Shown: positions 48,874-55,336 of the stretch, in pieces
How positions within the stretch are numbered: position 1 is the stretch's first letter
Layout: every line of letters starts with the position of its first letter
Assembly: GCA_043819795.1 (NCBI GenBank)
Contig: JBDREN010000230.1
Coordinates: 1-55,336 of the forward strand
Direction of reading: 5' to 3'
DNA: 55,336 bases
DNA from: Elusimicrobiota bacterium
Lineage (GTDB): Bacteria; Elusimicrobiota; Elusimicrobia; UBA1565
Notes under the pieces: generated by a model
What the model was told of the DNA's origin: nothing
Seen by the model: only the letters and a program-made list of their open reading frames with translations
Database searches by the model: none
Translations under genes and position numbers: made by a program

Positions 48874-48997
48874 TGCTCGTTCGACGATCCGCCGGAGAGT
48901 ATACCTATTGCGGGACGCCGCCCAAAAGTTGCATAAGTCACATAAGTTGAAGCCTGACACCGATTGACACCGATTCGTTACTTGGTATCATATCGGT

Positions 48998-53269: not shown

Positions 53270-54640
53270 TCACTCGACGAGCTCGAGCCCTGACGCCGCC
53301 GAGGCGACGGCCGGGGCCGCCCTCAGGTAGCCGACGGCTGACTCTCCGAGGTTGCCGGCCGCGTCCCGGGCCGTGGCCTTGACCGCATAGAGGACGCCGG
53401 GCTCCGGCGCGAAGCGGGCCCGCGGGCCGCCGTCGCCGGGGACCTCCCCCCAGGCGGACCAGCCGTCCGCCGAGCGGCGCGCGTGGAGGAATCGGAAACC
53501 CTTCCTGTCCACCCCGCTGGCCGCGTCCACGGCCGAGGCGGAAAGCTCGACGGCGGGTCCCAGGGCGAGAGTGGCCGCTTCCGGGTCCGCGGACGCCGGG
53601 TAGGAAAGCGTCACTCGCGGCGGGGCCTCGTCCACTTGGCGGTAGAAATAGACGAAGAGCGCGGCCGCGCTCCGGATCGCCAGCGGGATCAGCGCGTCGC
53701 CCTCCTCGTCAAGCTCCTCCTGCGTGAATCCTCCCGCGCGGCGGCGGCCGGCGTCCACGGTGCCGTTCCTCCCGCGCAGGGGCCCGCTCCCGGAGCCCGT
53801 GTCATAGCGCAGCGTGACGGTGTCCGTCCTCAGGAACAGGTCGTAGAGCGTTTCGAAGGAGTCCACTGGCCCGGACGGTACCTCCGACCAGCGCGGGTAG
53901 GCGCTTTTAATGAACTCCTCGTAAACAGCCGAGCCCGGAAGCAGGTGCGCCCACCGGTGCGCGTGGGCGGGAACGGTCAGGTCCTCGAGCAGGTGGGCGA
54001 CGTGGCCCAGATACCAGTAGGCCGCGTTCTTCTCGCCCGCCCGGTACAGGGCCACCGCGCCCATGCCCCGCTTCCCCGCCAAGCGGCCCCTGCCGTCGCC
54101 CCAGGCGCGGTCGTATTTCCCGTCGAGGCCGTAGCCTCCGGTGAAAAACTTCTGGGCCCGGTTGACCGCGCTGTCGCTGCCCGGGATCCCCGCGAACGGC
54201 CCCTTGCGGCAGTCCCAGAAATGCGCGAGGTTGGGGATCACGTCGCCGAACGGGTTCAGGCGGGGCTGGTCCTCGTCATAGGTACCGGCCAGGACCGTGT
54301 CGTGCGCGCCGGCCGGGGGCTTGTTGCCGTCGAACTCCCCGATGTAGCGCGAGAGCTCCCCTCCCGAGAACTGCGCGGCGTACATGAGGTACGCCTGCCG
54401 GGTGAAGAACATGTGGGCGATGGGATTGTGCAGGTCGCGGACGGGGGCATCCGTGCCGCCGGAGGGATCATCCTCGGCGGGAAGGGGGCGTCCGGGAGCG
54501 TCCGGGACGGGCGCCTCGGCGCCCGCGTCGACCGTGGCCCAGCCCGCCTGGAAATACCGTTCCCGAAGCGATTGCTCCCGGGACTCGGCGCCGGCCGCGC
54601 ACAAAAGCAAAAGACACGCGGCGCAGGCCACCCGTTTCAC
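53270..54640 (-). CDS. Secreted Zn-dependent phospholipase C/P1-nuclease-like protein with a C-terminal Ig-like domain
   Basis: AGGAG RBS with GTG start, signal peptide. AH.F, YDED, HFWD, YLGHVAHLLEDLTVPAH, YEE, then DEAPP...ARDAAGN. Confidence 0.78.
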   Translation of the reverse strand: MKRVACAACLLLLCAAGAESREQSLRERYFQAGWATVDAGAEAPVPDAPGRPLPAEDDPSGGTDAPVRDLHNPIAHMFFTRQAYLMYAAQFSGGELSRYIGEFDGNKPPAGAHDTVLAGTYDEDQPRLNPFGDVIPNLAHFWDCRKGPFAGIPGSDSAVNRAQKFFTGGYGLDGKYDRAWGDGRGRLAGKRGMGAVALYRAGEKNAAYWYLGHVAHLLEDLTVPAHAHRWAHLLPGSAVYEEFIKSAYPRWSEVPSGPVDSFETLYDLFLRTDTVTLRYDTGSGSGPLRGRNGTVDAGRRRAGGFTQEELDEEGDALIPLAIRSAAALFVYFYRQVDEAPPRVTLSYPASADPEAATLALGPAVELSASAVDAASGVDRKGFRFLHARRSADGWSAWGEVPGDGGPRARFAPEPGVLYAVKATARDAAGNLGESAVGYLRAAPAVASAASGLELVE

Positions 54641-54799
54641 GCCGGATCTCCTAGCATCCGCATGCCGATTATATTGTGCTTTATTGCACTTTCGCGGTCA
54701 AGAGAGGCGTCACTCATTAGAGGTCCCCGCGTCAATGGGCAATAGAATCCCAGCCCACAGGCCGTGGTTGTTCGCCATTACGCCTATTCTCTGCCGCTG

Positions 54800-55128
54800 T
54801 TGAAGGTGAATCCGCATCCGGGTTCTCTTTGATCTAGCGTCGGCACGAAGCCGCGCCAGTCACTCATCAGGATCAAGGCTTCGGCGATAATGCTGCCGTC
54901 GCCCCTGCCCTCTGCTCGAGGGCCCAGAAAACCTTTGGTACCCTGCCGCGTGCCCATTTGGATGGCGGACCATGCCGCCGACAGATTCATGGCTTACGAC
55001 TTGCGTCGAGCCAACGCCTAACTGGTTCACGGCCGAGGCGTCTTCGCCTAAAACGGCGGTGGAGGAAGCGGCTAATCAGACGTGTTGGTTTTTCCAACGC
55101 CCTTGCCGAGCTCGCCTCCCCCACCTAA
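54800..55128 (-). ncRNA. Putative bridge/seek RNA of the IS110 element
   Basis: Series of stem-internal loop-stem hairpins downstream of the transposase stop. The 9-mer ATGAGTGAC (54867-54859) is identical to the element end (54717-54709). Confidence 0.65.
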
Positions 55129-55132
55129 ATCT

Positions 55133-55336
55133 TTACGCAAACGCTCGCGCCTCATCGAATAGCACCTGGTCTTTAAGTACGTGATAGCAGGCGCGAGCCA
55201 GCTTGTGGGCGACCGCCTTGATGGCAACGATCCCGTTGGTCTTGGCCTTCTTCCGCTGATAAAATCGCCGGCTGCGTTCGTTGTAGCGCACGGCAAAATG
55301 CGCCGCTTCGAAAAACGCCCAGGCCAAGTATTTGTT
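55133..55336 (-). CDS. IS110-family transposase/recombinase, C-terminal part (5' end outside the window)
   Basis: NKYLAWAFFEAA..A.R......FYQRK..K.....AIKAVAHKLARACYH.L, typical of the Transposase_20 C-terminal helices. Confidence 0.88.
   Translation of the reverse strand, partial: NKYLAWAFFEAAHFAVRYNERSRRFYQRKKAKTNGIVAIKAVAHKLARACYHVLKDQVLFDEARAFA

Follow-up and report, generated by a model that had tools for sequence, protein, structure and literature searches.

The contig analysed here, a stretch of 55,336 nucleotides from an Elusimicrobiota bacterium that is referred to below as the window, ends within a gene for an IS110-family recombinase, and the non-coding region downstream of that gene holds an 11-mer (54869-54859, minus strand) that matches the 11-mer at the element's end (54719-54709) at ten of eleven positions. 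An earlier note had taken this internal copy as the donor guide of a bridge or seek RNA, and the question raised by the locus is whether the region encodes such an RNA and, if so, which DNA each of its loops reads. The motifs quoted in that note, among them TTGACG (54735-54730) and CGTC (55082-55079), lie where it had placed them, and its central claim, a downstream bridge or seek RNA of an IS110-family element, is borne out by the covariation of guides with flanks and with element ends. Comparison of sequences makes it very probable that the region specifies a bridge RNA of ~290 nt with three guide loops, downstream of the recombinase of a multi-copy IS110-family element. A donor guide within a 3' bridge RNA is a feature of an already known kind; the usual arrangement of two guide loops per bridge RNA, however, does not apply here, as a third, target-type loop is present. 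The earlier note had found the donor guide and had overlooked the 5' guide of target-binding loop 1 (TBL1), the inverted-repeat family that serves as target, and the second target-type loop (loop 2).

The 67 residues of recombinase in the window gave no useful match in a Pfam search of the fragment alone, and are ~86% identical to a complete sibling protein on another contig of the same genome (G000:C90), which matches PF01548, PF02371 and NF033542 above cut-off. D8, E55, D93 and D96 are invariant among 30 aligned recombinase proteins, so that the DEDD residues are present, and the predicted fold of the sibling resembles that of IS621 and ISCro4, with a DEDD RuvC-like and a serine domain. The candidate for the catalytic serine of the C-terminal domain is S/T259, conserved together with the N260 that follows it; in alignment the pair falls within one residue of the IS621-type S-G, in a loop with pLDDT below 50. 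With a PF01548 plus PF02371 recombinase carrying the DEDD residues, the element belongs to the IS110 family in the broad sense. An Rfam search returned two chance matches only.

The window is contig G000:C230 of a genome that carries two sibling elements with ~86% protein identity. Type A, the element of the window, is represented by four left ends, two right ends that are complete and one copy truncated just short of the stop codon; of type B there are four left ends, four right ends and, on C90, one complete copy. The element's copies are collapsed across several contigs, so that the left flank of the window's copy is not assignable; the left half of its target site lies on another contig. 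The closest recombinase proteins found have 68-79% identity and come mostly from Elusimicrobiota assemblies. For comparison 160 homolog loci were fetched and three from the same genome added; 155 rows, including the window, passed a C-terminal filter, 149 of them with open proteins, and 124 were left after dereplication at 90%. Each covariation test uses only the rows that have the parts needed, with n given per test; shuffles, 2000 per test, and tree-independent contrasts served for comparison where stated. The downstream non-coding region has a median length of 424 nt in 85 elements, and its features in the window are collected in Table 1.

Table 1. Features of the recombinase gene, the putative bridge RNA and the right element end, in coordinates of the window
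Feature	Position	Strand	Basis
IS110-family recombinase, last 67 codons and stop	55133..55336	minus	contig ends within gene
TBL1, free-standing stem with large internal loop and inner TGG/CCA hairpin	55058..55125	minus	covarying stem; guides covary with both flanks
TBL1 5' guide, complementary to top strand of right target flank	55097..55103	minus	covariation
TBL1 3' guide 55083-55079 (equals left flank), core TG 55078-55077, handshake AT 55076-55075	55075..55083	minus	covariation
Long-range helix, 5' arm (partner 54854-54845), closing a three-way junction with loop 2 and donor loop	55038..55047	minus	covariation
Loop 2, second target-type loop	54941..55037	minus	alignment A1; scaffold as in TBL1
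Loop 2 parts: 5' guide, TGG, CCA	55020-55014, 55013-55011, 54992-54990	minus	
Loop 2 parts: 3' guide, core TG, dinucleotide TC	54989-54984, 54983-54982, 54981-54980	minus	
Probable donor-loop 5' guide, facing left end of element	54927..54933	minus	weak; position like IS621 template
Two covarying hairpins within multi-branch donor loop	54875..54923	minus	95% and 99.6% paired
Donor-loop 3' guide 54868-54863 (equals right end), core TG 54862-54861, handshake AC 54860-54859	54859..54869	minus	covariation
Outward -35 box TTGACG	54730..54735	minus	18-nt spacer to GATAAT -10 box when joined to left end in circle; sequence only
Right sub-terminal inverted repeat	54718..54728	minus	11/11 complementary to left ends of type-A elements
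Core dinucleotide TG, right element boundary	54711..54712	minus	six right ends; junction comparison of homologs
Right target flank, outer end of inverted-repeat family tied to Y1 tyrosine transposases	54704..54710	minus	repeat comparison

The reading of the RNA depends on where the element ends. All six right ends in the genome diverge a few bases past a TG, and all eight left ends begin after a TG; a short core is shared by both junctions, the target is not duplicated beyond it and is specific, and empty sites carry one TG. Among 69 elements the cores at the two junctions are TG/TG in 61, CG/CG in four and TG/CG in four. The base that follows is A at the left end of the element in 69 of 69, while the right flank begins with A in 48 and with T, G or C in 21. 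Because the next base is always A within the element and A in only 48 of the 69 right flanks, the core is YG (54712-54711) and not the GA that had been proposed, and of the element end suggested at ~54709-54711 the boundary near 54711 stands and the position 54709 does not. Five loci (L069, L074, L084, L101 and L146) have a left core TG and a right core CG, which suggests mismatched-core recombination tolerated through a U:G wobble in the donor loop. The strict sub-terminal repeat leaves 9 and 5 nt plus core, and only its extension over a 1-nt bulge brings these distances to 6 and 3; in the IS1111 family the terminal extensions are 7 (or 6) and 3 bp. The junction promoter that the earlier note had expected on circularisation agrees with the layout, since the -35 box would come to lie 18 nt from a predicted -10 box made up of core and left end. 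The spacing is 17-18 nt in 58 of 73 rows, a count in which one row appears twice and the -35 motif itself served to locate the ends. No end-to-end joint was found in the contigs of four DNA runs, a result that counts neither for nor against circles.

Both halves of the target are read by TBL1. Its 5' guide pairs with the right flank at 5.76 of 7 positions against 3.95 in shuffles (n = 78; none of 2000 as high), the better of two registers being taken in observed and shuffled data alike, and on the window's own right flank it forms five Watson-Crick pairs and one wobble of seven. The two registers occur across the family, with or without a C facing the core G ahead of the inner hairpin. The 3' guide agrees with the left flank at 0.79 against 0.53 (n = 78; none of 2000 shuffles as high), and in a mutual-information scan over all RNA columns the columns of this guide came top for each of the flank positions -1 to -5. 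Contrasts at these five positions run 11:0, 12:1, 18:1, 13:0 and 15:1, and right-flank contrasts agree at +1, +5 and +6. The handshake AT (55076-55075) equals the first two bases of the element's left end, as it does in 52 of 54 elements, with few independent changes and with the first base fixed by the parsing pattern. The strands of TBL1 thus read both target halves and covary with them. The guides and flanks of the two siblings differ correspondingly, and with wobbles counted each element's own guide is best or tied at 13 of 14 flanks, the exception being one flank (C194), where for type A a type-B guide gives the better fit. A pairing of CGTC (55082-55079) with GACG at the element-flank junction had also been put forward; it scores 0.46 against 0.43 in shuffles, 62 of 2000 being as high (n = 78), and the sibling has AGTC at that place and GACA at the junction. 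CGTC belongs instead to the TBL1 guide for the left flank.

The sites that TBL1 selects are the ends of a repeat family. Type-A guides predict empty sites with 36 matches in the genome, 35 of them at ends of one repeat family as judged by eye; since a Markov model predicts 22, not far from the raw count, the evidence lies in the repeat-end context. Type-B guides, in a pattern extended by one observed base, give 22 empty-site matches against 1.6 expected, and two of these empty repeat ends lie in the window itself, at 48950 (plus strand) and 44338 (minus strand). A site that is empty on G000:C209 lies next to a type-B right end in the contigs of run X3, as seen at the right junction only and in a run that is perhaps not independent of the source; among the 30 relatives searched no empty version of the window's own site was found. 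In this genome the target repeats flank four of six Y1-transposase loci on both sides as outward pairs, and occur also as short pairs. Across the family, the reconstructed targets contain the terminal motif GGGGWSAS of the TIRtrons and TIRYT tyrosine transposases (PMC3733652, PMC6006769) exactly in 25 of 69 cases and within one mismatch in 47 of 69. An inverted partner lies upstream of the target in 13 of 53 (shuffled control mean 0.25), and a Y1 gene lies within the fetched flank at only six of 77 homolog loci having at least 500 nt of flank. An assignment of the motif to group 2 RAYTs was dropped, the available text of PMC5581495 giving it no support, and the motif is that of TIRYT. The available text of PMC3733652 and PMC6006769 makes no mention of IS110 insertion into TIRYT repeats. 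Tandem duplications of ~11-18 nt start at the outer end of the target repeat in the right flanks at C53, C55, C90 and C194 and at the empty sites on C202 and at 48950 of the window; since they occur with or without an IS110 element, they probably stem from the repeat family's own insertion. A broken Y1-transposase gene with internal stops (G000:C224:1622-1983) has three repeat copies on one side.

The internal 11-mer reads the element itself. Only one of 5000 dinucleotide shuffles of the non-coding region contains as good a match to the end, and in homologs the donor-loop 3' guide is concordant with the right end in 73 of 73 at the two variable positions (alleles 62, 10 and 1, the third being that of L098), a concordance that rests on three independent changes, with a fourth, L022, outside the counted set. 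The guide portion of the 11-mer thus holds as the earlier note had read it; its last two bases, AC (54860-54859), are the handshake for the target and equal the first two bases of the right target flank. Over the family this handshake agrees with the target at 0.92 against 0.70 (none of 2000 shuffles as high), with contrasts of 8:0 at the first base. Across the 124 homologs left by dereplication at 90%, then, the TBL1 guides, the donor 3' guide and the donor handshake all exceed every one of 2000 shuffles. For the left end the candidate guide is on the donor loop's 5' strand (54927..54933), barely above chance at 0.647 against 0.632 (2 of 2000 shuffles as high; n = 68), with mixed contrasts and a T:T mismatch in the window's own element; the signal is weak because the left end hardly varies. 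Another candidate for a left-end guide, the match ATTATC in a hairpin loop, was rejected, as it is displaced by 3 nt in the sibling. Covariation does not separate a small CCA/TGG hairpin around the donor 5' strand from an IS621-like closing helix.

The non-coding region folds better than its shuffles (z -3.15). The long-range helix (55047-55038 with 54854-54845) is 85% paired with two-sided changes at nine of ten pairs, and the consensus structure as a whole has two-sided changes at 44 of 54 pairs and 86% of cells paired, against 68% in shuffles and 36-41% in slid controls, although the structure was derived from an overlapping sequence set. A local hairpin 3' of the donor guide, described in the earlier note, is part of the single-sequence optimum but is not conserved, 47.6% of cells pairing in 49 homologs against 49.4% in the control slid by -3, and its bases lie in the covarying helix with 55047-55038. 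In energy the optimum that contains this hairpin is 13 kcal/mol better than the comparative fold. An RNAalifold hairpin covering the donor guide itself was discarded because it is broken by exactly those variants that covary with the right end.

Two readings of the RNA other than a bridge RNA of the proposed layout bear on these results. In one, TBL1 alone would be the functional seekRNA, the ends would be read by the protein through the sub-terminal repeats, and the internal match to the end would be incidental. Short target-only seekRNAs suffice for ISEc11 (PMC11187229), the donor 5' guide is weak and independent donor covariation events are few, but the full concordance including a third allele, an adjoining handshake that follows the target (8:0 in contrasts) and a guide-core-handshake-TGG layout parallel to that of the IS621 donor loop make this reading very unlikely. 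The other is the locus as first described, with core GA, end at 54709, CGTC-GACG pairing and a local hairpin presenting the donor guide; it is true letter for letter in the window's copy, and its hairpin belongs to the minimum-energy fold, yet it fails in the sibling and in the homologs, where a base other than A opens 21 of 69 right flanks, and we regard it as scarcely credible.

There remains loop 2, built on the same scaffold as TBL1 and joined to the donor loop in a three-way junction; its closing helix is 94% paired. A pattern recovers it from 94 of 110 rows. Twelve of the other 16 show the loop by eye, one (L045) is without it, one is truncated and two are unclear. L045, intact-looking and single-copy in its genome, retains the junction helix, and at L064, also a single intact copy, loops 1 and 2 are fused into one hybrid loop that has apparently arisen by recombination between them. 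A sister group at 32-34% identity has loop 2 in nine of nine loci, two of which are near-identical. A clade-specific pattern for the loop pair found none in three more distant IS110 loci, including an ISKpn43-like one, and the sister group itself was not found in viral contigs and 301 genomes of the phylum.

In a covariation set of 86 rows, from which the window and seven mis-parsed rows were left out, the guides of loop 2 agree with the flanks at 0.557 against 0.408 (n = 61) and 0.605 against 0.536 (n = 63), in both cases beyond all 2000 shuffles. The signal is concentrated near the core, and distal guide positions are at chance level. Contrasts run 9:0 at +1 (p = 0.004) and 10:2 at -3, but only two of 12 tests reach p < 0.05 in the expected direction, most contrasts are ties, and +7 runs the opposite way at 0:6. 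Shared ancestry with TBL1, or conversion by it, could mimic such tracking of the target. At the position of the handshake, the dinucleotide of loop 2 equals the donor in one of 54 and the target in none of 54, whereas that of TBL1 equals the donor in 52 of 54.

A mechanism can be outlined from the biochemistry of IS621, ISEc11 and CazIS110-1. The circular intermediate would form the junction promoter, and the RNA would bind the DEDD/serine recombinase, with strand exchange around TG. Sequence and covariation themselves show that TBL1 reads the TG core together with 5 nt of left flank and, on the other side, ~7 nt of right flank, that the 3' strand of the donor loop reads the right end, and that the donor handshake matches the target base after the core. 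As in the known systems, both handshakes should pair after exchange, so that insertion would be favoured. Loop 2 appears to read only the 1-3 core-proximal nt on each side, and is without the handshake expected to block the reverse reaction; being relaxed and handshake-free, it would pair with the donor loop at an occupied, often imperfect site. In copy-out or excision, loop 2 and the donor loop may thus recognise the occupied site, with new sites picked by the free-standing TBL1. Such a role for loop 2 at the occupied site, suggested by the split RNA roles of CazIS110-1 and the need for flanks in ISEc11 excision, is a tentative proposal, the likeliest of those considered here, that we regard as possible though short of probable. 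It is weakened by the report that IS621 excision needs no target complementarity (10.64898/2026.08.31.748434), while excision of ISEc11 needs both flanks (PMC11187229). A slightly more tentative generalisation is that a widespread IS110 clade, together with its ISGsu4-like sister group, may carry a three-loop bridge RNA with division of labour between a stringent insertion loop and a relaxed loop for excision or copy-out.

Set against an occupied-site role are two other accounts of loop 2. It could be a module for protein binding or structure, or else an old TBL1 duplicate, in either case no longer pairing with DNA, its likeness to the target being inherited or copied from TBL1. The chance-level distal guide positions, the predominance of ties, the absence of the loop at L045 and an agreement with TBL1 that peaks at the core-proximal base (0.87) would all fit; however, on independent branches the core-proximal bases track the target (9:0 at +1, 10:2 at -3), none of the 49 aligned rows has lost the core TG, and the module persists in a group of only ~33% protein identity, and on balance we think this account somewhat unlikely. 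Alternatively, loop 2 could be a second insertion guide, either for another type of site or allowing retargeting without loss of the current one. A full guide scaffold is kept, loop 2 fits the site better in three of 52 loci, the right flanks of sister loci L186 and L211 match it better than loop 1, and the window's right flank matches it at six of seven positions. Against this, TBL1 fits better in 45 of the 52, where the 3' guides differ the left flank agrees with TBL1 in 85 cases and with loop 2 in 14, and in this genome the loop 2 patterns match one and three repeat-end sites where those of TBL1 match 40 and 72, with no second repeat family indicated by the loop 2 guides. Its handshake equals the donor in just one of 54. 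We judge a spare guide unlikely, slightly more so than the preceding account.

Comparison with known systems bears on how the element should be classified. With IS621 and ISCro4 (IS622) it shares the DEDD RuvC-like and serine-domain fold, a 2-nt core and the order guide-core-handshake (PMC11208160, PMC13626964, 10.1101/2025.05.14.653916), together with the TGG..CC inner hairpin, handshakes that match the partner substrate, as described for IS621 (PMC13626964), and targets at repeat ends. In contrast to those systems, the RNA is encoded 3' of the gene and its reading of the DNA runs the other way round, the core is TG or CG (CA or CG on the other strand) rather than CT, protein identity is ~23%, and an RNA of ~290 nt, against 177, has a multi-branched donor loop and a third guide loop. 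A multi-loop donor region has already been noted for IS1111 orthologues (PMC11208160). From ISEc11, ISKpn4 and ISPa11 of the IS1111 family the element differs in a non-coding region of ~420 nt against ~270, in its readable donor loop and in its second target-type loop; it has in common with them the downstream non-coding region, the 11-bp sub-terminal repeats, a predicted junction promoter, a 339-aa protein, a first stem-loop of ~70 nt and a top-strand match 5' of the bottom-strand match (PMC11187229). The top-strand match comes first in IS1111 seekRNAs (PMC11187229), and the order in TBL1 is likewise, which is the IS621 layout on the opposite strand. Where the IS1111 family has G-L-P....S-G the protein has S-N, and over residues 5-148 only it has ~26% identity to a canonical member, an ISKpn43-like protein. 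Overall the element resembles an IS621-type bridge system with the layout of IS1111. The IS1111 assignment in the earlier note is upheld by the layout, that is by the 11-bp repeats, the long downstream non-coding region and the guide order, and opposed by a protein without the GL-P----S(t)G motif, and because this motif is missing we have not filed the element under strict IS1111.

Among named groups the closest is the ISGsu4-like one, a placing made only from a database label and by eye. Two plasmid matches at 56% identity are labelled 'ISGsu4 family', the group of ISGsu4, ISGsu5, ISMahy12, ISShfr7 and ISShwo5, and to the eye the printed ISGsu4 and ISMahy12 proteins look similar to those of the sister group at 32-34%, whose loop scaffolds and TG core are those found here. 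In the data of Siddiquee, ISMahy12 is labelled IS1111 and ISGsu5 IS110. The ISfinder protein file of PMC11187229 contains no match to the motif YNWYW, which hints, though weakly, that the clade has no name. In CazIS110-1 different strand-transfer steps are served by two RNAs, one free and target-only, the other with target and donor parts (10.1101/2025.10.25.684509), a likeness to the roles proposed here; there both RNAs come from one target loop, whereas here two separate target-type loops have differing guides and handshakes. No description of a second or duplicated target loop, of the RNA of the ISGsu4 group or of a TIRYT target was found in the literature searched, where the one paper to name ISGsu4 deals with another subject; that search covered text, outside which lay figures, preprint supplements and most subscription papers; a 2026 survey with 86 bridge-RNA models may include this family.

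What the locus adds, for a downstream RNA of IS1111 layout, is covariation support for reading of the donor and of the handshake; for such RNAs published experiments have mostly shown the reading of targets. The extra loop matters more, as the route of IS110 excision or copy-out, given handshakes that favour insertion, is currently disputed, and a division of labour between the loops, if true, would be a natural genetic answer to the insertion-versus-excision bias of bridge recombinases; such an element would also prey on the repeat ends of tyrosine transposases. We prefer to regard the family as a clean test case, with two separately mutable target-type loops and two naturally retargeted siblings in one genome, and bridge editing may gain from it a scaffold in which insertion and excision have guides of their own.

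Two further observations concern the surroundings of type-A copies. At G000:C142:10596-10797 (L003) a copy stops 2 nt before the stop codon, with the whole RNA region and the right end gone, and continues into a repeat pair that includes an empty type-B site; the loss could be a deletion or an assembly join. In the window, an ORF of 456 aa with a signal-peptide-like start (53270-54640, minus strand) lies directly downstream of the element; it has no Pfam or NCBIfam match, and its His-rich segment presumably resembles the motifs of zinc phospholipase C and S1-P1 nucleases.
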